From IMG/VR virus record IMGVR_UViG_3300045988_145381: 48,428 nt of DNA; one strand, written 5' to 3'. Positions 1 to 48,428 of this stretch are shown one piece after another (the first letter of the stretch is position 1; every line of letters starts with the position of its first letter). Below the pieces are notes generated by a model. That model worked only from the letters and a program-made list of their open reading frames with translations, was not told the DNA's origin and ran no database searches. This stretch comes from a virus (lineage: Duplodnaviria; Heunggongvirae; Uroviricota; Caudoviricetes). Position numbers and translations under genes: made by a program.

Positions 1-128
1 GTTGACACCCTCGCATAACCATATTGCATACTTTCTAAACCGCGATTGTTGCTAAAAGCGGGAAAAAATATCGTTCAGACGACACAGAGGCAATTCGCAA
101 AAACCTCGGTTTACAGGAAACGGTAAAT
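1..128. repeat. 128-bp sequence identical to 48301..48428 (circular contig overlap)
   Basis: First 128 nt of the window recur exactly at the 3' end; the boundary coincides with the invertase crossover site. Confidence 0.9.
103..127. promoter_or_regulatory. DNA-invertase crossover site, left inverted repeat (gix/cix-like)
   Basis: acctcggtttacaggaaacggtaaa is the perfect reverse complement of 3155..3179; it lies about 75 bp upstream of the invertase start (wrap-around). Confidence 0.75.
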
Positions 129-2157: not shown

Positions 2158-4536
2158 TTAAACGCTCGCTACATTATACCAGGTGCCATTTATATACTTT
2201 TGAACGGGTCTGTAATAAACGCCCGCTATATTATCGGCAGAGTTGGACCCTGTATCCTGAACATTAATACCAGACAATACATGACCTGACGGGCACTGGA
2301 AATTCCATGTTTGCCAGTTGTTCACTCCATAATATTGCTGTGAACCAAGTCGAACATCTTTCACATATCTGGAATCAAAATTGCCATAGTTGCCGGGAAT
2401 AACTTGCGCACCGCAAAGCCAGTTTCCGTTATTATCCATGTACGCCTGACCATCGGTGCCATTGGCTGTCCTTGAATTATTAATCATGTAGATGCCAAAT
2501 TGCTTGTTCCCCAGTCCACCTATCATGAACTTGCGGTCGGCGTGATTCTGGCGAAGCAACGCCTGAGCGCTATCAGTGTTAACTATATTTTTCCCAAAGA
2601 TAGCGTTGTTATCGCGCATCTGAATCCACATACCATTACTGCTGTTAATAGCAAAACGGTCTGAAAGTGTCTCCCCTGAAACATTAAGACCACGCCCCAT
2701 CGAAACAGCGCCAGTAGCGTTATTAATCCATAATGGCCTTAATCCGTTATAAGTCCCCATGTTGTCACCGGAGTTTGTCAACATGAAGTATGTATTTGAA
2801 CCATCATTACGAATAAAGAATCCGTAATTACCATAAGCAATACGTAGGCCGTTTGCTGATTTTGATATGACTTCGCCATTTACAATGGCATTGACAAGAA
2901 CATACAAAGCATCCCATTTAAGATTCATCAGGTCTTTTGTTGTGGTACTTTGTTTGCTTCTCCATTTGAAATATTCATTGCCGTTGTCGCCTGTCTCAAA
3001 CCACATGTATGAATCAGTGTCACCATCGGCATCATTTTTAAATCCAATCTTCGCCCAGTCAGTATTTCGAATCCAGGCAAGGATTGAGTCATTTTCAAAA
3101 GTAAGCCCGCCGGACAAGGTATCGCCTGTCTTTTGAACGGCGTTACCAGCCTTGTTTACCGTTTCCTGTAAACCGAGGTATTCGATAACGGCAGCAACGG
3201 TCGATTTCGCAAGAATATCCCGCCCGACTTTTGTCAGGGTTGCCAGGCTGGCGACATCATTCCCCGTAAAATACGGAAACTTGTCTGCCGCAGTAGCAAG
3301 CCCGGCCAGCGCCGTCAGGGTGGCATCTTTCGGTTGCTTACCCGCAAGCGCGTTAGTCATGGTGGTCGCAAAATTCGGGTCGTTTCCCAGAGCCGCCGCT
3401 AACTCGTTCAGCGTATTCAGTGCGTCAGGTGACGAGTCCACGAGGGCAGCGATCGCAGCCATAACGAAAGCCGTGCTTGCGATTTGGGTATTATTCGTTC
3501 CCTGTCGCGCAGTTGGCGTTGTTGGCGTTCCGGTCAACGCAGGACTGTTTAAGGGCGCTTTCTTGTTCGTTTCATCCATTACCGCCTTGACCGCTTTCGA
3601 TGTCGCGGCCAGTGTTTCAGACGTGCTGTTGGTGGAACTACTGAGCTGAGTTATTCCCCTTACAGTCAGTGAAGCTACAGGCACATTTGTTATCTGCTCC
3701 CACGAATGCGTGTGATTGGACGGAGCCTTTCCGGCCGCAAGATCATACGCTGCCTTAACAGCCTTTGGTGTTGCTGCTAGCGTTTCAGACGTGCTGTTGG
3801 TGGCACTACTGAGCTGAACAATCCCTTTTCGCGCTGTGGTAGCGTCCTGTGCGGTGTATTTGCCATTAGCCAGGTCATATGCTGCCTTAACAGCCTTAGG
3901 CGTCGCAGCAAGCGTTTCAGACGAGCTATTGGTGGCGCTGCTAAGTTGAACAAAGCCTTTTGAGGTTAAAGTTGCATCAGGATGATTACGTGATTGTTCA
4001 TGTTTCACAATGGCTTGCTTAAGCCGCTTTGCTGAAACAGCAAGGGAATCATCTGTACCGTCATCAATTTCTTGTTCATTGGCAAATCTTGCAACCCCAA
4101 CAACAGTTTCGGTTGCGGGAGGATTAATAAACTCAATATCACCAAATGTAATATTTTTAGTATCAAGAGTCTTGATTGCTATGTCACTTGATATTAAAGC
4201 AATAGTAGATGATGCTTTATTTATTATTGCTTGTTCTTGCGAGTATACAGCAAACAACGTTCCCTTATTTGTATACAATCCTATTGTATGGACAACATAC
4301 TCATCTTTACTATCATCCTTCGCCGTTACATGAATTGTATCAGGGGAAACAACTTTGCCACCTATTGTGGTAAGTCGTTTTATTTCGTTTGTTATATTTG
4401 TTTGTGAAGTTGACGTGACATAATATCTACTACCTAAACCAACAGAAACAATCTCAACTTTATTTGTTCCTGTTTTGTTGGCATTAACCAGCTCCTGACG
4501 CCCGGCGTCAGTCATCGTAAATAATAATTTACTCAC
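2158..4536 (-). CDS. tail fibre protein (constant N-terminal part plus currently expressed variable C-terminal part)
   Basis: 792-aa ORF with three tandem ~33-aa repeats (G[IF][27 protein letters not shown]) typical of phage tail-fibre repeats; crossover site inside the ORF; followed by tfa. Confidence 0.85.
3155..3179. promoter_or_regulatory. DNA-invertase crossover site, right inverted repeat (inside tail fibre ORF)
   Basis: Perfect reverse complement of 103..127; falls at codons ~453-461 of the fibre. Confidence 0.75.
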
Positions 4537-28041: not shown

Positions 28042-28307
28042 TCATCATCTCCTGCCGCACATACAACCTCACAAAAAACATCAGCGGAATGTTTCTCCTT
28101 GAACGAATGACGCTCAAAACCGCACTCAATATCAGGCGCAAAAACATCCACCACATACGGTCTTTCAGAATGTTGGTTTTCCCAACGATAAACCGTAGTG
28201 ACGTTGAAATGTTTTAACGCTTCACGGAACTCAACGCTGCCCGTCAGGTTTTTTGAGGTCAGGTATTGCAGGAGGTTTTTTACTACTTCACGGTCTTGTA
28301 CTTTCAT
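28038..28307 (-). CDS. hypothetical protein
   Basis: 89-aa ORF directly downstream of copy 1 of the conserved promoter-leader element. Confidence 0.45.
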   Translation of the reverse strand: MKVQDREVVKNLLQYLTSKNLTGSVEFREALKHFNVTTVYRWENQHSERPYVVDVFAPDIECGFERHSFKEKHSADVFCEVVCAAGDDE

Positions 28308-28314
28308 CGGGTTA

Positions 28315-28425
28315 TCTCCGGTTTAACCAGGGCGGGTATCGCTCGGTTTCGGGTATAACCTTAGGAAATTTTTTCCCACCTGTAAAGCACTTTTTATATA
28401 AATCTATAATTATATAATTCTATGA
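28315..28425 (-). promoter_or_regulatory. conserved promoter-leader element, copy 1
   Basis: Near-identical to 34827..34940 and 44347..44457; gene-direction read gives TTTACA-17bp-TAAGGT, a -10-like TATACC, a conserved leader and ggaga Shine-Dalgarno; AT-rich palindrome upstream. Confidence 0.6.
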
Positions 28426-29007
28426 CACTTGCCAGAGAGCATCATGCAACTGGATACCTCCGTTGCACTGGTTGCCCCAGCCATGCCAGCCATCAGGTAA
28501 ATCACCGCGAGCAAATAGCTCAATACGAGGAACATCACCTAACAGTCTTACCAGCTTGTCACGAACCACATCAGGCTTCCGTGAATGTTCCAGACGAGGC
28601 GATGTAAACGACTGAATGATCCCCGCATCAAGACGTGTCGGTAGTTTGCCTTTCACTGCAAACAAGCAATCTTCACTGTTTGCACGAGTCATATGCCCCA
28701 TCCCCATCACCAGCTTATCTGGTTGTCGGCTACCACATTTGTTCCATGTGAAGCCCTTCATGGTCATAAGCCTGAATCCCCATGCTTTCACCACCAGCAA
28801 CGCTTCTTCTGGCTGAGTCGGAACCCACCACATGGCCAACAAACACGATTCAGGATTAGCAAGCTGCCAGACAGGAATACGAGCAATATCCTCAGCTTTC
28901 ATCGTTGGATACTTAAAACCAGCTCCACGATTCCCATCCTTACACTTATCTTTGTATTCCCAGGGGGGATCTGCATAAATCAGATTAAACAATGCAATTG
29001 CCTCCAT
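28420..29007 (-). CDS. MT-A70-family N6-adenine DNA methyltransferase
   Basis: 195-aa ORF with the DPPW catalytic motif (...IYADPPWEY...). Confidence 0.7.
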   Translation of the reverse strand: MEAIALFNLIYADPPWEYKDKCKDGNRGAGFKYPTMKAEDIARIPVWQLANPESCLLAMWWVPTQPEEALLVVKAWGFRLMTMKGFTWNKCGSRQPDKLVMGMGHMTRANSEDCLFAVKGKLPTRLDAGIIQSFTSPRLEHSRKPDVVRDKLVRLLGDVPRIELFARGDLPDGWHGWGNQCNGGIQLHDALWQVS

Positions 29008-29315
29008 GTTAGTTGTGCCTCCGGCGCTTATCTCCGGCAGTCATAACGCTGGCCAGCTCTACAGCAGACACAACGAAAAGGGCACTAACCAGACTGATTA
29101 ATGCCCTTGCCTGTTGTGTGCCGGATATCGCCCGACAACGCTGTTTTGGTAACACGGCTACAGTTCCGTGCCGCTCCAGCTTTTACCCCTTTGCGGATAA
29201 CAGGCCCTGCCTGTAACTTAGCCCCACGTTCGCCCGAAATGCGCACCAGGCACGCATAAAGATGAGCACGAAGGAAGTAACTCCACCGCGCTTATCTTTA
29301 TGTGTGAGAGTGAAT

Positions 29316-29391
29316 TGGTGGCCCCTACCGGATTTGAACCGATGACCGTGCGATTATGAGTCGCCTGCTCTAACCACTGAGCTAAGGGGCC
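29316..29391 (-). tRNA. tRNA, anticodon CAU (Ile2-like or Met)
   Basis: 76-nt cloverleaf GGCCCCTTAGCTCAGTGGTTAGAGCAGGCGACTCATAATCGC...GGTTCAAATCCGGTAGGGGCCACCA with encoded CCA; 5' half matches E. coli ileX-type tRNA as recalled from memory. Confidence 0.85.
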
Positions 29392-29560
29392 ATATTTGAT
29401 CTGTTTGTCTGGTGTGGCGCCGCGCACGAAAATCCCAGCCAATAAATTCAGGATTTTTGGGCGCGGCGGCATATCAGACAAACATGGTTGATGCGTGCGC
29501 CCATAAGAAAAGCGCATAGAATGTTGTAACTATATATTTATATAATTATAGAAATATATA

Positions 29561-29770
29561 TTACTTTCGGCAGTTGATTTCCCATGCCCTGTTATGAGCC
29601 AGAATATCTTTCTTTGTCTGGCGGTCCATAACATCGATGTCGTGATCAGTCAGGTAGATGGGCTTTACCCAATCACAGGCGGTATCAACCACCACCGGGA
29701 CGCTTCCACGACTCCCGCAGCTCGCGATCAACATCGTCATCAGCCATATGGTTAACACTCTGCTGTACAT
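29561..29770 (-). CDS. o-spanin (Rz1-like lipoprotein)
   Basis: 69-aa ORF with lipobox-like LIASC, out of frame inside the 3' part of the i-spanin ORF. Confidence 0.55.
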   Translation of the reverse strand: MYSRVLTIWLMTMLIASCGSRGSVPVVVDTACDWVKPIYLTDHDIDVMDRQTKKDILAHNRAWEINCRK

Positions 29771-29963
29771 TCCCCACCTCTTTTGTCACTTCTATACGCC
29801 GCTCCGCAGTGGCTTTTACGGCGGCTGCATTCTCATTAATGCGCTGCTTTTCAGCTTCATATTCGGCCTTTTCTCGCCCCTTCATACGACCAAAACCAAA
29901 TGCGCCGAATGCAACTAATATAATGGTGCCGATAAATGACAAAACGGCTTTCAAACCAGTCAT
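29685..29963 (-). CDS. i-spanin (Rz-like)
   Basis: 92-aa ORF with N-terminal TM segment and charged coiled region; immediately downstream of the endolysin. Confidence 0.55.
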   Translation of the reverse strand: MTGLKAVLSFIGTIILVAFGAFGFGRMKGREKAEYEAEKQRINENAAAVKATAERRIEVTKEVGNVQQSVNHMADDDVDRELRESWKRPGGG

Positions 29964-30502
29964 ACCACCACTCGCTCTTTCATCCAGCCATAGACAAACG
30001 ACTCATTTGCTTCGCGTTTCTCCGCCAGGTCCAGATAACGGTCGCCCTGCGTACAGTTAAGGGCCGTCAGCATTACCCGTTCGCCGTCTTTTCCCCGATT
30101 CCCAAGATAAGCACGTAATGCCGCAATGGTGCGCGGGCCGATTCGCCCATCCACATCCATATCTGGATACAACTTCCCGCCACGGTTGAAAACATTCAGC
30201 CAACGTTGAAGCATCTTCGTAGCCACAGTCGGCCCCATGTTGACGCCCGTATCGCACATCTCAGCCGCAATATCAGGGGAAAATTGCGCCACCTGGTCAA
30301 AACGAGGCCCATACCAATAATCACCTTCAAGAATCATCAGAGCCTGTTCTCGCGTCAGATCTCGCATATCGCCACGGTATCCGTGAGCACGGGCAGTATT
30401 CTGAGTGATGCCCCACATTGTTGGGCCTCCCTTGTCGTCAGGGTGATCAACATAACCGCCCTCTTTTCCAAGAATGCTGTTAAAAATCTCATCTTTGGTC
30501 AT
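29960..30502 (-). CDS. endolysin, GH108-type muramidase with C-terminal peptidoglycan-binding region
   Basis: 180-aa ORF; N-terminal ...GKEGGYVDHPDDKGGPTMWGIT... motif characteristic of GH108 lysozymes. Confidence 0.8.
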   Translation of the reverse strand: MTKDEIFNSILGKEGGYVDHPDDKGGPTMWGITQNTARAHGYRGDMRDLTREQALMILEGDYWYGPRFDQVAQFSPDIAAEMCDTGVNMGPTVATKMLQRWLNVFNRGGKLYPDMDVDGRIGPRTIAALRAYLGNRGKDGERVMLTALNCTQGDRYLDLAEKREANESFVYGWMKERVVV

Positions 30503-30785
30503 GATTAAATCCTAATGCGTCAACTATCCGCGCCAGATTGCCCCTGAAATACAGAACAACGATGCAGATAATCAGATTTCCAATAACCACCAGCCAGTGG
30601 GATTCTTGATAAAGACCGAACACATAACGGAAGGGAACATTGGCGTATACAATGACGTAGATATAAGCTAGAAAGGAAACAAATGGACGATGCCTGGAGT
30701 CTTTCCGTCGATAAAGCATCAGCGCCATTACTATTACTGTGCAAAGCACCGCATTAATCAGTGCTGACGGGTCACTGCTTACCAT
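30489..30785 (-). CDS. membrane protein, possible holin or antiholin partner
   Basis: About 3 TM segments; between the holin and the endolysin; start uncertain (ORF track 30489..30821). Confidence 0.4.
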   Translation of the reverse strand: MVSSDPSALINAVLCTVIVMALMLYRRKDSRHRPFVSFLAYIYVIVYANVPFRYVFGLYQESHWLVVIGNLIICIVVLYFRGNLARIVDALGFNHDQR

Positions 30786-31167
30786 TTGAACCCCCTCCAC
30801 GTAAGCGGGAAAGCATTCCAAAGATGCTACCGAGATCCTGGCTGTTTACGAACGTGAGGATTTTAATGGTCAATGCAGCCACAATAACCGCACCAAGCGC
30901 ATCCAGAGGACGATCGTTGTAGCTGGTCCATTTGGCAAGAAATGAGCCAACTAACGGCGCTCCAATCACTCCAACAATGAACGATGTAAAGAAATAGCCA
31001 ATCAGCTTGAGACGGCTAATATTCACCGCTGTAGCAACATAGAAAACAGCGCCAGCAAATGCCCCGAATACAACGCCGTAATCAATACCAGTTGCAATAC
31101 CAAAAACGCTGGCACCCATCAGGCCACCAGCAGCAACGGCCGTACCGGAAATTGGTTCTGCTGACAT
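30772..31167 (-). CDS. holin (putative)
   Basis: 131-aa multi-TM protein at the head of the lysis cassette; gaggat Shine-Dalgarno; terminator immediately upstream. Confidence 0.55.
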   Translation of the reverse strand: MSAEPISGTAVAAGGLMGASVFGIATGIDYGVVFGAFAGAVFYVATAVNISRLKLIGYFFTSFIVGVIGAPLVGSFLAKWTSYNDRPLDALGAVIVAALTIKILTFVNSQDLGSIFGMLSRLRGGGSNGKQ

Positions 31168-33684: not shown

Positions 33685-33761
33685 TGTCGAGGCGTCCTTA
33701 TACATTTATATAAATATATAATTCTATATACAGCGGGAGACATCCCGCCGTATGCTTACTG

Positions 33762-34829
33762 TCAGGCTTTCAATAGCGATTCTTTCAGATATCGGGCATC
33801 AGCCAGGGCGTTTGGAGTAATCTTGCGAACCCATGCATTACGGGTTGGACTCCACTTAAAGGCGCGTGATTTAAGCAGCGAACGAATGTTTGCCTCTGGT
33901 TTGCCAGGGAAATAAAACAGGATGCGGTTATCCTCTGGATCTATCTCCATAGAAAAGCCGTCGTATTCTTCGCGCTGTGCTCCTGTTACAGACTTGACCG
34001 ATTCAAGCTCCTTAATACGGCTCTGTAGTCGTTTGATTTCGGCGTTATTGTTGCTCAGTGCGTATGAAGGGAATCCGATGCGCCCACAGAAATCTCCGGC
34101 CAGTAACTCTTTGGCTTCGCTTTCTGTAAACCTGAGATCGATTAATGCAGAAAGCTGCTGTAATTGGTCTTTTTTGTATTTGCGAATGGCCTTATTTGCG
34201 GCCTTCATTTTGACGTGTGACTTCATGCAGCCTTGCAGTTTACGAAGCAACTTAAATAGCGCATCAGGATCATCAGACGAAATTCCATTACGACCAACAC
34301 CTGCGGCTTTGCTCTCGTAGTGTGATGCTTTACTTTCGCATTCAACAAACGCTTTTCTGAATAACGCATCAGCTTTAGACAAACGGCGGCGATGGCCTTT
34401 CGCGCTATAATGGTCAACTAAAATCGGCTGGCCTAACGGGATCACATCCAACAGGTCATGCGCTCGCTTATGCGCTACCGCTCCTTCTTTTCTGGCTTTT
34501 TCTGCACGAGCAATATATCGGGCAAGACGCGCGTTCTGGCGTTCCTGATAGGTGTTTACGTAATCATCTCCGCGCTGCTGCTGTTCAAGCCATGCTTTGC
34601 GCAGATCTTCTGTTACGTCCACCAGCTCCGCAGGGATACAACCAGTTTGGGCTTCATAAGAGTAACCATCCTCATAGATGCGCCCATCGTCTTCAACAAA
34701 GAAAAAGGTTTCGTGCTCATCGCTTTTGACCATACGACCATTAACATGGCGTAATAGGTAGCCAGTATCAGTGCTTAACAGGCTGTTAGGGTTGTTGATC
34801 CAGTCAGAAATAATTACTTGTTTATTCAT
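33762..34829 (-). CDS. DUF3560-like protein
   Basis: 355-aa ORF; C-terminal ...FKWSPTRNAWVRK... resembles the DUF3560 signature recalled from memory; downstream of promoter-leader copy 2. Confidence 0.5.
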   Translation of the reverse strand: MNKQVIISDWINNPNSLLSTDTGYLLRHVNGRMVKSDEHETFFFVEDDGRIYEDGYSYEAQTGCIPAELVDVTEDLRKAWLEQQQRGDDYVNTYQERQNARLARYIARAEKARKEGAVAHKRAHDLLDVIPLGQPILVDHYSAKGHRRRLSKADALFRKAFVECESKASHYESKAAGVGRNGISSDDPDALFKLLRKLQGCMKSHVKMKAANKAIRKYKKDQLQQLSALIDLRFTESEAKELLAGDFCGRIGFPSYALSNNNAEIKRLQSRIKELESVKSVTGAQREEYDGFSMEIDPEDNRILFYFPGKPEANIRSLLKSRAFKWSPTRNAWVRKITPNALADARYLKESLLKA

Positions 34830-34940
34830 CAGATTTCTCCGGTTTAACCAGGGCGGGTATCGCTCGGTTTCGGGTATAACCTTAGGAAATTTTTTCCCAC
34901 CTGTAAAGCACTTTTTATATAAATTATATAATTATATATT
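34827..34940 (-). promoter_or_regulatory. conserved promoter-leader element, copy 2
   Basis: Near-identical to copies 1 and 3; lies between the Q-like gene and the DUF3560-like gene. Confidence 0.6.
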
Positions 34941-35000
34941 ATTAGATTTTCGATGTTCCCGATGTCTACACACCTATCAAAAAGCTCAAAATTGACACTT

Positions 35001-36860: not shown

Positions 36861-37351
36861 TCCTCAAGCCTCCCAAGTGCTGAACGCCGGGCGTTGCTAA
36901 TCTCCTTATGAATCAGCTCGATATCGCTGGAATCTTTATTCTTAAGCTCCAGCACGGCAATCGCATCACGAACCTCTGAAACGGTTACGTGTGAGTGTTT
37001 CCAGCGAGCAATGAATCGCGGACCGCGTAGATTGCAACGCTCCGCAGGCATCCCCAGCTCAGAGAAAACCGCTTTCAGCCTTGATAAGCAGTTAACAGGG
37101 AGATTCCCTTTGATCTTGTTCTGCCGAACCGATGTGCCATCGCTACGCTGGCGCTGACGTTCGGCAAAATCTGCCGCCCATTGCTGGACGTTAATCCGGC
37201 CTTCCGAATACGCCACCAGCAGCGTCAGGTTATCCGCACGAGGGAATCTCTCGAAGCGATACCAGGCACCAATCAGTGATGACGTAAAGCCAAACTTTCT
37301 GGCAACACCAATTTGGCCTCCATTTTCGTCAACCCACTCCTGAAAGGTCAT
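36857..37351 (-). CDS. Cro/CII-like HTH regulator (putative)
   Basis: 164-aa ORF divergent from the CI-like gene; N-terminal HTH-like segment (...GGQIGVARKFGFTSSLIGAW...). Confidence 0.45.
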   Translation of the reverse strand: MTFQEWVDENGGQIGVARKFGFTSSLIGAWYRFERFPRADNLTLLVAYSEGRINVQQWAADFAERQRQRSDGTSVRQNKIKGNLPVNCLSRLKAVFSELGMPAERCNLRGPRFIARWKHSHVTVSEVRDAIAVLELKNKDSSDIELIHKEISNARRSALGRLEE

Positions 37352-37370: not shown

Positions 37371-37489
37371 ACCACGATATGTGGTATTAAAACCACATAT
37401 CGTGAGTTTTTCAATGGGCGAAACAAAAAATAACCTTCTATTTGTGGTCCACCTCTCGTCTTACCATGTGAAAACCACTAAATGTGGTA
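37371..37489. promoter_or_regulatory. immunity operator region with three ACCAC-N5-GTG(G/A)(T/G) sites
   Basis: accacgatatgtggt (37371..37385), accacatatcgtgag (37392..37406), accactaaatgtggt (37475..37489) in the divergent intergenic region; tataaat -10-like element at 37493..37499. Confidence 0.6.
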
Positions 37490-37525: not shown

Positions 37526-38188
37526 ATGAAAAGCAACGACGAGAACATCAAGAAAGAAATAGGTCTGCGCATTCAGACTCTACGGAAACAATCCGGCATG
37601 ACTGCCGGAGATCTCCAGCAAGTCACTGGAATAGGCTTAAGCACCTTGCAGAACTATGAGGCCGGATTAAGACAACCATCTATACCTGCCATCAAGAAAA
37701 TCGCGCACGCCCTGAAAGCATCAGCGCCTTACATCGCGTGCTTAACAGATAACCCGTTCCCACCCCAGAATACTAACGCTCCTGTTATTCCTGGGCTTGT
37801 AGCTATAAAAAATGACATAGCATCGCACGCCGGAGAAAAGCCAGTGCTGGCGATAGAACAGGAGATTTTACGAAGCAAGAACATCAACCCATCGTCTCTG
37901 TCAGTTCTCCAGAGCAACGATGAGCTAAAGCTAATGTCACCAACAATATCCCCTGGCTCCCAAGTCCTGATTAATACAGACGATACAGAGATTCATGAGG
38001 GGATCTATGCCCTTGAAGACAGAAATGGCCTGGTTGTTTTGAGGCACTGTAGAGTCATACCGGGTGACAATGCTGTTATGCTGTCAACCGAAAGGGATGC
38101 TGAAATGAACACTAAGCATCTGAATAACGAGGAATTTAAGCGTTATAAAGTTCTTGGCCGCGTAGTTAGTGTTGTCAACTGGTTATGA
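37526..38188 (+). CDS. CI-like repressor (HTH domain plus S24 LexA-like peptidase domain)
   Basis: 220-aa ORF; N-terminal HTH (...QSGMTAGDLQQVTGIGLSTLQNYEAG...), Ala-Gly in HAGEK, C-terminal S24-like region. Confidence 0.75.
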   Translation: MKSNDENIKKEIGLRIQTLRKQSGMTAGDLQQVTGIGLSTLQNYEAGLRQPSIPAIKKIAHALKASAPYIACLTDNPFPPQNTNAPVIPGLVAIKNDIASHAGEKPVLAIEQEILRSKNINPSSLSVLQSNDELKLMSPTISPGSQVLINTDDTEIHEGIYALEDRNGLVVLRHCRVIPGDNAVMLSTERDAEMNTKHLNNEEFKRYKVLGRVVSVVNWL

Positions 38189-38655: not shown

Positions 38656-38683
38656 CTGCAAGCGGGCTAACGCCCGCTTATAT

Positions 38684-38790
38684 GATTATAGATTTATATA
38701 ATTATATAAAACGCTTTTCATCCGCCAAAAAGTTGGTTATGCTTACCTCGTTCTATAAATATAGATTTATAGAATTATATAACCAAACAC
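38684..38790. repeat. AT-rich palindromic repeats upstream of parF-like gene (candidate centromere/operator)
   Basis: Perfect 16-bp palindrome ttatataattatataa at 38694..38709 and related tatagatttatagaattatataa at 38764..38786; a third copy at 39458..39490. Confidence 0.5.
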
Positions 38791-39459
38791 ATGGAGTCTC
38801 GACAAATGACTATCTCTGTAGGTATTTTCAACGGAAAAGGCGGCGTAACCAAATCAACAATTGCCCGTGCTTTAGCAGTTGCTTATGCAAAGGCTGGCTG
38901 GAATGTATGCCTGATCGATATGGATGTGCTTAACGGAACGGTAACGCGTTGGGTACAACGCAGAATGGCCAACAATATCGAACCAGCAATCGCGGCGCAG
39001 CCGTGCGGCACACCATCACAAGTCCAGAAAATCATCGAATCAGAAGTATACGACCTGGTTATCGTCGATGGCGGTGCCTACGCATCTGAATCAGTACCGA
39101 AGCTCTCTGAATTTCTGGATATGGTTATTTTGCCAACCAGATTCTCTACCGATGACCTGGAAACCACCGTTAACACTGCTCACGGCATCGTTAAAAAGGG
39201 TGTACCAATCAAGAAAATTTGCATGGTGTTTTCCGGCGCGGCTGAAAACGAAGCTGACTATATTGAAGCCCAAGAGTACCTGGCTAATACGCCATACTTT
39301 GTTGTTGATAAGTACATTCCCCACAAGCCAGCTCTGAGCAAAGCTCAGGATAAGGGCTTAAGCCTCATTGAGTGCTCATACGTTGCGCCACGCAAAAAGG
39401 CAGACGACGTTATTCAGGGGATTATCAACCAGCTTGAGGCTCTGACTACTGCCGCGTAA
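38791..39459 (+). CDS. ParA/ParF-type partition ATPase
   Basis: 222-aa ORF with deviant Walker A (GIFNGKGGVTKST); start may be the second Met at 38806. Confidence 0.7.
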   Translation: MESRQMTISVGIFNGKGGVTKSTIARALAVAYAKAGWNVCLIDMDVLNGTVTRWVQRRMANNIEPAIAAQPCGTPSQVQKIIESEVYDLVIVDGGAYASESVPKLSEFLDMVILPTRFSTDDLETTVNTAHGIVKKGVPIKKICMVFSGAAENEADYIEAQEYLANTPYFVVDKYIPHKPALSKAQDKGLSLIECSYVAPRKKADDVIQGIINQLEALTTAA

Positions 39460-39502
39460 TATATAATTATAGTTTTATAGATTTATATAAGAGGGGATAC
39501 AC

Positions 39503-39967: not shown

Positions 39968-39990
39968 AACCATAAAAAAGGCCCCCGAAG
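39968..39990 (-). terminator. rho-independent terminator (minus-strand orientation)
   Basis: ggcccccgaaggggcc hairpin with a T-run on the minus strand. Confidence 0.5.
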
Positions 39991-40001
39991 GGGCCTAATC
40001 G

Positions 40002-40124
40002 CTACTTGCTGCTAATGTTTATCGTCACATTTAGAGCGTTATCAGTAATCTTCCAACCCTCCCCATGTGGCGTAAACAAAGCTCCAGTAACAACGATAAA
40101 AATACACATACAGTATTTTTTCAT
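40002..40124 (-). CDS. small hydrophobic peptide (40 aa, MKKYCMCIFIVVTGALFTPHGEGW...)
   Basis: Read directly from sequence; Shine-Dalgarno-like aaggg upstream; terminator 39968..39990 immediately downstream. Confidence 0.25.
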   Translation of the reverse strand: MKKYCMCIFIVVTGALFTPHGEGWKITDNALNVTINISSK

Positions 40125-40520
40125 TGTATGGCCCTTACAGGCCGTTTCACGGCATCCCCACCGACGAAAACAACGCGAGAGCAAGCACGGCTGCTTGTGC
40201 TTGCATGTACGGCAACGGAGAATCCTCCCCTAAAGTCGGTGCCCGGGTGCGAATCGGCGGGAAGGTCCACAGGTATTTTACGATTATTTTAAGATTAGTA
40301 ATAGGAAAGAAATTAAACGAAAAAACTCGTTTATTTTCACAAAATCAGTAACCTACCCACAATCTGTGAGTTTGCAGGCACAACAAGAACCACAATTTTT
40401 TGAAGCATAATAGTGGACTATTATTACCTTTTGGGTAAAATTAACTTGCTGCTTGTGCTTGCGTGGTTGTTTATACAACAACGTAATGCTGAAAGGACCG
40501 CGAATCCGATCAGCACGAAA

Positions 40521-40549: not shown

Positions 40550-40690
40550 TTTCTGCCTACCAATAAACCCACGCTATGTGGTTGTCTCTGTTAAAATCCC
40601 GCCGTATTGACATGAATGCGCCATTGGTGGACACTTTCCGAGCCGTAGCAAAATCTACGGTCGGGATTGGCGTCCCGATTGCACAATGGC

Positions 40691-40716
40691 GCATACCGCG
40701 TTAGCGGTTTTTTTAT
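40691..40716 (+). terminator. intrinsic terminator-like hairpin in the ant leader region
   Basis: accgc-gtta-gcggt stem-loop followed by 7 T. Confidence 0.45.
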
Positions 40717-40876
40717 GCGTAAAGCACTGCTACACCCAAATTATGGTGGGGCGTGCGGGGGCGGAGAAATCCGCGCCGGGTTTGTCATTGTGCCGGTTAC
40801 GCCAACCCTGTACGTCTCACCACCATATTGATTGGCGTCATTGGTGGTGATAGTTCCTTTAATCGGAGATATCACA

Positions 40877-43958: not shown

Positions 43959-44339
43959 TTACTTAACGAGGAATAAAAATGGTTTATTGTTCGGCGGTGT
44001 AATCGGGGCTGGCTCGCTTTTGCTCATGCGATCAGTGTACCAGGCCAACTCCTTGTCAAAGTAAGCCTGATTAAAATAGGCCATGAATGTAGTTTCAAAT
44101 CCATAACGACCGCTAATACGCAGCATCTGATTGCCGTTCTCTGTTTCCAGATATACCTGGGCACGTTCCTGATTCTCCTTCAGCCAGGTTAAAGCCTCAT
44201 CGCATGAGGACACACGATACTCATCATCGTAGCAGTCATCGATGCGGCTTGAGGAAGAACGGCAAATCACGCCAACAGAACCAGCCAGGATAGTTTGAAT
44301 TTTAAGGAAAGCGTTTTTGCGGATTTTAATCATGCTCAT
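43959..44339 (-). CDS. hypothetical protein
   Basis: 126-aa ORF directly downstream of promoter-leader copy 3. Confidence 0.45.
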   Translation of the reverse strand: MSMIKIRKNAFLKIQTILAGSVGVICRSSSSRIDDCYDDEYRVSSCDEALTWLKENQERAQVYLETENGNQMLRISGRYGFETTFMAYFNQAYFDKELAWYTDRMSKSEPAPITPPNNKPFLFLVK

Positions 44340-44346
44340 CGGGTTA

Positions 44347-44457
44347 TCTCCGGTTTAACCAGGGCGGGTATCGCTCGGTTTCGGGTATAACCTTAGGAAT
44401 TTTTTTCCCACCTGTAAAGCACTTTTTATATAAATATATAATTATATAATTCTATGA
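44347..44457 (-). promoter_or_regulatory. conserved promoter-leader element, copy 3
   Basis: Near-identical to copies 1 and 2, including the upstream ttatataattctatga motif. Confidence 0.6.
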
Positions 44458-47775: not shown

Positions 47776-48330
47776 TCAATGATTCCCAGCCGGAAACCTG
47801 CGGTAAAGCGTGGATAAGGTAACATCGAAGATAATCGCTATCCGCTTACGTGAAACACCATTCGCAATAAGCCTTCCGATCTGTTCCCATTGCTCTGGTG
47901 CCAATTTTGAGCGGCGTCCTCCTATCCTGCCGTTAGCCCTTGCCACCGCCAATCCTGCACGCGTTCTTTCAATCATATTTTCCCGCTCCATCTCTGCGAC
48001 TGCACTCAGCATCGTGTAGGCAAAGCGGCCAATTGAAGTGCTAATTTTTATCCCTTCCGTAATCGAAATAAACTCAATGTTGTTTGATAAAAAATAGTTT
48101 AGTAAATCAACAAGATGAATCAGAGAACGCCCCATTCGGTCCAGCTTCCAGACAATAACCGTATCGCCCGGCCGTAACACCTTCAGTAGCTTATCAAGTC
48201 CTGGTCGTTTTGATTTAGCACCGGATATTTTATCTTCAAAAATCCGGTCACATCCTGAACTCCTGAGCGCCTCCAATTGTAATTCCAAATTCTGGTCAAA
48301 AGTTGACACCCTCGCATAACCATATTGCAT
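47776..48330 (-). CDS. serine DNA invertase (Hin/Gin/Cin/Pin family)
   Basis: 184-aa ORF MQYGYARVSTFDQNLELQLEAL...DRMGRS... with catalytic Ser motif and C-terminal HTH; start wraps to window position 30; crossover site upstream. Confidence 0.9.
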   Translation of the reverse strand: MQYGYARVSTFDQNLELQLEALRSSGCDRIFEDKISGAKSKRPGLDKLLKVLRPGDTVIVWKLDRMGRSLIHLVDLLNYFLSNNIEFISITEGIKISTSIGRFAYTMLSAVAEMERENMIERTRAGLAVARANGRIGGRRSKLAPEQWEQIGRLIANGVSRKRIAIIFDVTLSTLYRRFPAGNH

Positions 48331-48428
48331 ACTTTCTAAACCGCGATTGTTGCTAAAAGCGGGAAAAAATATCGTTCAGACGACACAGAGGCAATTCGCA
48401 AAAACCTCGGTTTACAGGAAACGGTAAA

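Follow-up and report, generated by a model that had tools for sequence, protein, structure and literature searches.

The window, by which we mean the whole stretch of 48,428 nt analysed here, carries a single tRNA gene, which ARAGORN placed on the minus strand at 29316-29391 with the anticodon CAT at position 34. The Rfam tRNA model RF00005 matched 29319-29391 on the same strand at 67 bits (gathering score 29, E = 1.6e-12). Its sequence spans 76 nt, the CCA end included, and 20 of the 21 stem pairs of the cloverleaf are standard, the sole exception being G27:A43. A genuine, intact tRNA gene is thereby confirmed at this position. The original prediction of a 76-nt tRNA with the anticodon CAU was exact in its coordinates; it left the strand unstated, which is the minus strand.

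Nearly all genes between ~1.6 and 37.4 kb are encoded on the minus strand, and the tRNA is oriented like the lysis and late genes (Table 1). Read in the minus-strand sense, the order is holin, holin, endolysin, i-spanin, o-spanin, 169 nt of non-coding DNA, the tRNA, 308 nt of non-coding DNA and the gene for an MT-A70 methyltransferase. The tRNA had been predicted to lie just downstream of the spanin genes, and it does, the 169 nt being the distance from the o-spanin stop codon (29561-29563).

Table 1. Features of the tRNA locus and related AT-rich arrays, with positions in the window
Feature	Position	Strand	Basis or detail
Holin 1	30772-31167	-	PF16931; PGAP annotation of near-identical plasmid
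Holin 2	~30489-30785	-	PF05449; PGAP annotation of near-identical plasmid
Endolysin (GH108 + PG_binding_3)	29960-30502	-	Pfam PF05838, PF09374; phrog_315
i-spanin (Rz-like)	29685-29963	-	phrog_1026, E 1.7e-31; N-terminal hydrophobic segment
o-spanin (Rz1-like lipoprotein), in another frame, overlapping i-spanin	29561-29770	-	phrog_1275, E 3.5e-33; lipobox LIAS|C
AT-rich palindrome with TATAAT hexamer (29550-29545, minus)	29531-29560	.	15-nt arms, 93% complementary, no spacer
Small GC hairpin (GCGCUUUUCUUAUGGGCGC) between the palindrome and the 83-nt hairpin	29496-29516	-	Predicted fold of 29392-29580
83-nt imperfect hairpin, ending 10 nt before tRNA nt 1	29402-29484	-	Inverted repeat, 34-nt arms, 85% complementary
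tRNA-Ile2 gene, anticodon CAU (read as lysidine-AU once modified)	29316-29391	-	ARAGORN, Rfam, ileX/P7 alignment, PGAP label
Hairpin 10 nt past the tRNA 3' end	29251-29306	-	Inverted repeat, 25-nt arms
Terminator-like hairpin with T-rich tail, ~70 nt before the MT-A70 start codon	29078-29108	-	Consensus scan, pattern match only
MT-A70 family DNA methyltransferase, next gene downstream of the tRNA	28420-29007	-	PF05063, E 3.4e-23; phrog_359
Further AT-rich arrays, all intergenic	28393-28422, 33698-33730, 34923-34940, 38677-38710, 38750-38783, 39458-39487, 44425-44454		

The two ends of the window (1-127 and 48302-48428) are 100% identical over 127 nt, which indicates that it is a complete circular replicon of ~48.3 kb whose ends overlap in the assembly. 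Plasmids of ~48 kb from E. coli are nearly identical to it. The annotation of one such plasmid includes repA, parA and a RelE/ParE toxin-antitoxin pair together with a contractile-tail phage set of large terminase, portal, ClpP-type protease, major capsid, sheath, tube and tape measure proteins. The element is a phage-plasmid, that is, a plasmid prophage. The tRNA with its flanks was found in 69 of 5426 complete E. coli genomes (best match NZ_CP080230.1, 100% over 361 nt). It is also carried by 58 PLSDB plasmids, almost all of them from Escherichia (E. coli, E. fergusonii and E. albertii among those listed) with one from Klebsiella aerogenes; one carrier, NZ_CP009073.1, resides in E. coli ATCC 25922. 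Yersinia phage vB_YpM_39, deposited as a phage genome, is 98.7% identical across the lysis-tRNA region. An affiliation of the element with a family through pSLy3, AnCo3 and HQ103 was considered and rejected, pSLy3 and AnCo3 being of the SSU5 type and HQ103 a 32-kb Peduovirus.

The isotype of the tRNA was examined by alignment with ileX, ileY, metT/U and metV of E. coli K-12. The anticodon CAT, and software that goes by the anticodon, would make the gene an elongator or initiator tRNA-Met. Identity was 68/76 (89.5%) to ileX and 66/76 to ileY, compared to 57/77 (74%) to the elongator metT/U and 47/77 (61%) to the initiator metV. Nucleotides 1-42 and 66-76 are exactly those of ileX and comprise the acceptor stem, the D arm and the anticodon arm except position 43. 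This bears out the close resemblance of the stems to the minor isoleucine tRNA of enterobacteria that the original prediction had noted. Hallmarks of the initiator were missing: G1-C72 is paired, so that there is no 1:72 mismatch, and the anticodon stem (GGCGA/UCGCA) does not have the three G-C pairs at 29-31:39-41. Features of elongator tRNA-Met were not found either, as the acceptor and anticodon stems differ from those of metT/U. The identity elements that IleRS reportedly recognises according to Nureki et al. 1994 (A73, U12:A23, C29:G41, A37 and A38) are all found in the window tRNA. Pairs 4:69 and 5:68 are both C:G, as in ileX, and the acceptor-stem determinants of E. coli TilS are therefore present; the U:A and A:U that elongator metT has at these pairs are absent. 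C4:G69 and C5:G68 are used by E. coli TilS to distinguish tRNA-Ile2 from tRNA-Met (PMC11947777).

The differences from ileX are limited to positions 43-44, the T stem and position 59. The T-stem changes all preserve pairing (49:65 from G-C to A-U, 50:64 from C-G to U.G and 51:63 from U-A to C-G), and position 59 is A in place of G. The acceptor stem, D arm, anticodon loop, pairs 28-31:39-42, A73 and encoded CCA of the host gene are matched; unlike ileX, the window tRNA is borne by a phage-plasmid and has a rebuilt T stem and A43 and C44 where the host has U43 and U44. Nucleotides 28-42 are the same as in ileX, and A43 turns the G.U of the host at 27:43 into G:A. Substitutions in the anticodon stem can impair E. 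coli TilS (PMC11947777), and A43, with the resulting G27:A43, is a real uncertainty for recognition by TilS. The tRNA-Ile of phage P7 also has A43 and hence G27:A43.

Public annotations of this tRNA disagree. NCBI PGAP labels the 100%-identical sequence as tRNA-Ile in RefSeq plasmids of ~48 kb, that of ATCC 25922 among them, and the RefSeq pipeline presumably calls its tRNAs with tRNAscan-SE. Isotype-specific models allow tRNAscan-SE 2.0 to separate Ile2, Met and fMet, which the anticodon alone cannot do (PMC8450103). The label tRNA-Met is given by ARAGORN and by a GenBank phage record, OR545053 (OR545053.1, L002:5497-5572). The same tRNA thus appears as tRNA-Met in OR545053.1 and as tRNA-Ile in RefSeq NZ_CP080230.1 (L001:20170-20245), a conflict that apparently arises from calling the isotype from the anticodon alone. 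ARAGORN also gives the Met label to the identical gene that RefSeq calls tRNA-Ile, and anticodon-only calling cannot split Met, fMet and Ile2; its label is therefore not a refutation of the isoleucine identity. The TilS determinants and the PGAP label both favour Ile2, and every identity feature of the sequence contradicts the tRNA-Met reading, which we regard as extremely unlikely. Collectively, these comparisons support the assignment of the window tRNA to the Ile2 type (lysidine-dependent and AUA-decoding) rather than to tRNA-Met.

The closest phage gene is annotated as tRNA-Ile in P7 and is identical at 72 of 76 positions, the comparison being based on the GenBank annotation of P7. Derived A43, C44, A49-U65 and C51-G63 are common to both tRNAs, and in P1/P7, too, the tRNA is carried on an E. 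coli phage-plasmid. The settings differ. In P7, tRNA-Ile is the third tRNA, upstream of ban in an operon that also contains tRNA-Asn and tRNA-Thr and is governed by the C1 operator Op(ban). In contrast, the tRNA of the window is the only one present and lies between the lysis cassette and the MT-A70 methyltransferase gene, not in a C1-controlled tRNA-ban operon. Flanking homology to P1/P7 is zero, and only the tRNA itself is shared.

A pattern scan of IMG/VR with the 3' half of the tRNA yielded at least 121 copies in at least 120 stretches. Among the matches listed, 9 belong to the family of the window and 112 stand in a P1/P7-like context (108 by BLAST of the flank and 4 by an identical downstream flank). 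In these 121 listed copies, the 5' part that the pattern left free varies only at positions 6, 13, 26, 27, 28 or 29, and positions 50 and 59, which were degenerate in the search pattern, vary as well. Changes at paired positions stay Watson-Crick or G.U, except for two single-copy changes at the mismatched 27:43. By its sequence the window tRNA belongs to the P1/P7 tRNA-Ile lineage, outside the ban-operon context of P1. The scan of genome contigs for the exact 3'-half pattern had no match, and a looser pattern led to one Escherichia contig; neither scan gave evidence for an origin of the tRNA as the native ileX of another genus. Another comparison is with ileZ of the Stx-converting lambdoid phages (ileZ-argN-argO), an Ile2-type CAU tRNA on a temperate coliphage that is ~83-84% identical. 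ileZ has classically been interpreted as supplying a rare codon for phage genes. It is accompanied by two Arg tRNAs (AGA/AGG) on an integrating lambdoid phage, whereas the element in the window has no Arg tRNA.

More distant phages whose spanin is related (49-70% identity) lack a tRNA downstream of that gene, and in the six of these that were compared, homology to the window ends at the o-spanin stop. Salmonella phage-plasmids of the same wider family have ~73-80% nucleotide identity at the locus. In one of them, L139, the same slot is occupied by another tRNA of the Ile2 type. This tRNA is identical to that of the window at 65 of 76 positions and has the same acceptor stem; its 31:39 pair is C-G in place of A-U, and 27:43 is unpaired here as well. 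L140, pAR-0407-1 and an S. salamae plasmid have no tRNA in the slot and keep 'GCCCCTTA..CAG' there (one reads GTCCATTA), a remnant of which 8 nt match the 5' end of the tRNA. The diverged tRNA of L139 and the 8-nt remnants indicate that the slot has long been occupied by an Ile2-type tRNA. The simplest reading of these sequences is that such a tRNA was ancestral in the slot and afterwards disappeared from some Salmonella lineages, and that one tRNA allele is common to the E. coli lineage and the P1-like elements. Within the close family (12 members), 3 of the 76 tRNA positions are variable, compared to 4-8% in the flanks; the two are about equal, and purifying selection on the tRNA is not demonstrable at this depth.

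The AT-rich palindrome directly follows the stop codon of the o-spanin, and 139 nt separate its end from the first nucleotide of the tRNA. The original prediction, which had the tRNA preceded by such a palindrome, is borne out in this respect, although the palindrome has no specific tie to the tRNA and is one of a set of dispersed arrays. Similar arrays occur at eight or more other intergenic sites, and a 14-mer taken from the array had 40 matches at ≤3 mismatches where 8.6 were expected. The arrays are probably operator/promoter or centromere-like sites for a DNA-binding protein encoded by the element. Dispersed over the element, they contain 3-4 copies each of an AT-rich unit of ~8 bp (TTATAKAW), often with TATAAT, and three array copies flank parA. 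A sigma-70 scan of 28900-30100 under strict settings returned no promoter, owing to the poor -35 of the TATAAT hexamer, which by eye matches at only 3/6 positions. We tentatively regard the palindrome as a candidate promoter/operator.

A cassette of 122 nt that includes an AT array occurs three times on the minus strand, at 28304-28425, 34825-34946 and 44336-44457, with 82-98% ungapped identity to the reference copy. Each consists of the AT array, a leader of ~80 nt (GTGCTTTACAGGTGGGAAAAAATTTCC...CCGGAGATAACCCG), a Shine-Dalgarno sequence and the ATG of one of three unrelated genes. The cassettes look like repeated promoter/operator and 5'UTR modules. They had no match in Rfam, and the fold z-score was only -1.7.

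Two predicted hairpins follow the palindrome in the direction of the tRNA. The small GC hairpin has no U tract and is thus unlike an intrinsic terminator. The 83-nt hairpin, also free of a U tract, is a probable 5' leader structure, the leader region having a predicted fold z of -5.35. Over the AT-rich element 29519-29560 and the 83-nt hairpin, none of 125 sites is variable among the 12 family members, compared to 4-8% in the flanks. Across five diverged relatives, 5 of the 33 pairs of the hairpin show compensatory double changes; equivalents lie at L139:2081-2163, L140:1963-2045, L257:3077-3159 and L258:3077-3159. The hairpin may act as a processing, stability or antitermination element. The palindrome region is likewise highly conserved in the Salmonella relatives. 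Since the AT element and the 83-nt hairpin are present in relatives that have no tRNA, they serve the locus and not the tRNA as such. A pattern search of IMG/VR for the AT motif with the hairpin led to no more than members of this family, the two relatives already identified and a chance match, L256.

Downstream of the tRNA, the 308 nt up to the methyltransferase gene (29008-29315) are strongly structured (fold z = -5.51), and most of this stretch is conserved in the Salmonella relatives. The terminator-like hairpin near its end is the first candidate stop for the tRNA transcript. Rfam matches near the tRNA at permissive E values (microRNA-like ones on the hairpin and a rydB-like one at 29010-29065, with 27 bits where the gathering score is 50) were dismissed as sub-threshold noise. 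In the Salmonella relatives, a nearly invariant non-coding block of ~130-150 nt (GAGGCGTATCCGAGCGGATTGCAGCGCCGGTCGACGCAAAGACCCGTAAATCGACTGAGCCACAGCA...GGGGTAGCGCCCCGGTGCCTCACC) lies between the hairpin and the tRNA slot (L139:~2350-2480, L257:~3180-3330 and equivalents in L258 and L140). It is far better conserved than its flanks, is absent from the window and is a candidate small RNA.

To compare the demand for AUA decoding, we counted codons with an identical greedy ORF set for every sequence and took 50 kb of K-12 as the host reference. AUA accounts for 16-17 per 1000 codons in the whole element (16.9 for a count of 249 AUA codons) and for 26-27% of its Ile codons, compared to 2.9 per 1000 and 5% in the K-12 sample. 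The difference is 5.9-fold (odds ratio 5.96, Fisher p = 4e-38). Genome-wide, AUA makes up 7% of the Ile codons of E. coli (PMC2408971). Usage is highest in the tail and baseplate genes, at 24.1 per 1000 and 35% of Ile codons, followed by 19.9 per 1000 in the plasmid and immunity genes, 15.3 in the head and packaging genes, 7.9 in the lysis genes and 7.5 in the early genes. AUA enrichment of the element genes, the check put forward with the original prediction, is therefore supported and peaks in the tail genes. The 35% share in the tail genes equals the expectation from third-position composition, and AUA is thus not avoided in them. The major capsid gene has no AUA among 346 codons and the tail tube gene has one among 172; the most highly expressed late genes avoid this codon.

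AUA is not the only rare codon that is raised. AGA is enriched 4.2-fold and AGG 5.9-fold, and the element encodes no matching Arg tRNA. Two Salmonella plasmids without the tRNA have 13.2 and 15.1 AUA per 1000, and the idea that AUA richness depends on carriage of the tRNA was rejected on this ground. The values of these sister plasmids also indicate that the tRNA is dispensable and that codon usage is not tied to its presence. The element has a real and large demand for AUA decoding, and carriage of the tRNA is optional.

Taken together, we consider it likely that the gene encodes a functional tRNA-Ile2 which is lysidinylated by TilS, charged by IleRS and supplements a scarce host pool on behalf of an AUA-rich element. 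The gene would be transcribed from the minus strand and its transcript processed at the 5' and 3' ends of the tRNA. Host TilS would then turn C34 into lysidine, after which host IleRS would charge the modified tRNA with isoleucine, enabling it to read AUA. In this way the phage tRNA may top up the small host pool made from ileX and ileY and ease translation of AUA-rich messages, those of the tail and baseplate genes above all and also those of the plasmid-maintenance genes. The gene, its cloverleaf, identity elements and conservation and the AUA excess are observed here, and we infer expression, modification and charging, and likewise any fitness benefit. That the tRNA supports translation by supplying AUA decoding, as had been proposed, is plausible but unproven, because AGA and AGG are equally enriched in the absence of a tRNA for them and the tRNA-less sister plasmids are almost as rich in AUA.

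Alternatively, the tRNA could be a working Ile2-type molecule but effectively neutral cargo, a hitchhiker swapped among E. coli phage-plasmids with no measurable benefit. Its loss down to an 8-nt remnant in Salmonella relatives of nearly equal AUA usage, the parallel enrichment of two Arg codons with no tRNA for either and the avoidance of AUA by the capsid and tube genes anyway all point in this direction, and the sharing of the tRNA alone, without flanks, with P1/P7-like elements fits easy horizontal movement. However, the gene is intact and shows only pair-preserving variation in all members of the close family examined (69/5426 E. coli genomes, 58 PLSDB plasmids and 9 IMG/VR stretches), is also retained across the P1-like elements and has a diverged Ile2-type counterpart in the same slot of L139. 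We think neutrality unlikely.

Counter-defence roles have also been proposed for phage tRNAs, and the gene could be a spare that keeps AUA decoding going if the host tRNA-Ile2 were depleted or cleaved by a tRNA-targeting defence or toxin. The element copy does differ from the host tRNA at positions 43-44 and in the T arm, but the anticodon loop and nucleotides 28-42 are the same, so that an anticodon nuclease would cut both. A defence directed at tRNA-Ile2 is not known to us, no feature of the window was linked to the idea, and we hold it to be very unlikely. The 42 nt of perfect identity with ileX might instead mark an attP-like target for recombination or integration, or a copy that compensates for a host tRNA gene disrupted by integration; phage-encoded tRNAs are reported to be required for lysogeny in some integrating mycobacteriophages (PMC10865867). 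Against such a role, the element, which has repA and parA, is a plasmid prophage, and no integrase is annotated among the features listed for 40 of the 48 kb, the sole recombinase being a small recombinase-family protein. All 25 of the 25 listed full-length matches are records of ~46-57 kb and not chromosomes. Moreover, it is in its 5' two-thirds that the gene is identical to that of the host, whereas attP sites in tRNA genes carry the 3' end. A link to integration is barely conceivable.

Returning to the supply of AUA-decoding tRNA, the most economical model of its regulation is that the AT array acts as a regulated promoter from which a structured leader and then the tRNA would be transcribed. 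The transcript may end at the hairpin 29108-29078 or run on into the MT-A70 gene and the late genes. A more far-reaching idea, which we rate as decidedly improbable, is that the locus is a conserved RNA slot, in which the AT-array operator/promoter (29531-29560) and the invariant, covarying 83-nt leader hairpin (29402-29484) would time the transcription or processing of whatever cargo lies downstream. If so, the cargo would be tRNA-Ile2 in the E. coli elements and another non-coding block in the Salmonella ones, and tRNA supply would be linked with the change to late gene expression. Cleavage by RNase P at the tRNA might then also split the lysis transcript from the downstream late transcript.

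The identification itself is correct but ordinary, as phage-borne AUA-decoding tRNAs are textbook knowledge and the identical sequence is already a tRNA-Ile in RefSeq. What is modestly new is the occurrence of one allele in two unrelated families of E. coli phage-plasmids and a conserved slot with natural gain, divergence and loss. A second family, unrelated to P1, now joins the carriers of the P1-type tRNA-Ile2. Of small practical value is another case of a mobile-element CAU tRNA mislabelled as tRNA-Met when only the anticodon is used (ARAGORN, OR545053). Depending on the sister plasmid, the same slot holds tRNA-Ile2 of the E. coli type, holds a diverged form or has lost it, which makes the set a natural experiment. 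One member resides in the standard strain ATCC 25922, and the set could be used to test whether a single phage-borne rare-codon tRNA pays for itself.

Elsewhere on the element, three Rfam models matched above their gathering scores: ryfA at 39974-40270 on the minus strand (143 bits), isrK at 40642-40714 on the plus strand (67 bits) and C4 antisense RNA at 40739-40827 on the plus strand (72 bits). isrK and C4 are located directly upstream of a gene for an ORF6N-domain (antirepressor-like) protein, an arrangement that suggests an immunity region of the P1/P7 style under antisense-RNA control. A near-perfect palindrome of 32 nt (CACGATATGTGGTATTAAAACCACATATCGTG, 37373-37404) occupies the divergent intergenic region between the early operon, which ends at 37351 on the minus strand, and the gene for an XRE-family regulator (37526-38188, plus strand), and is likely a repressor operator.
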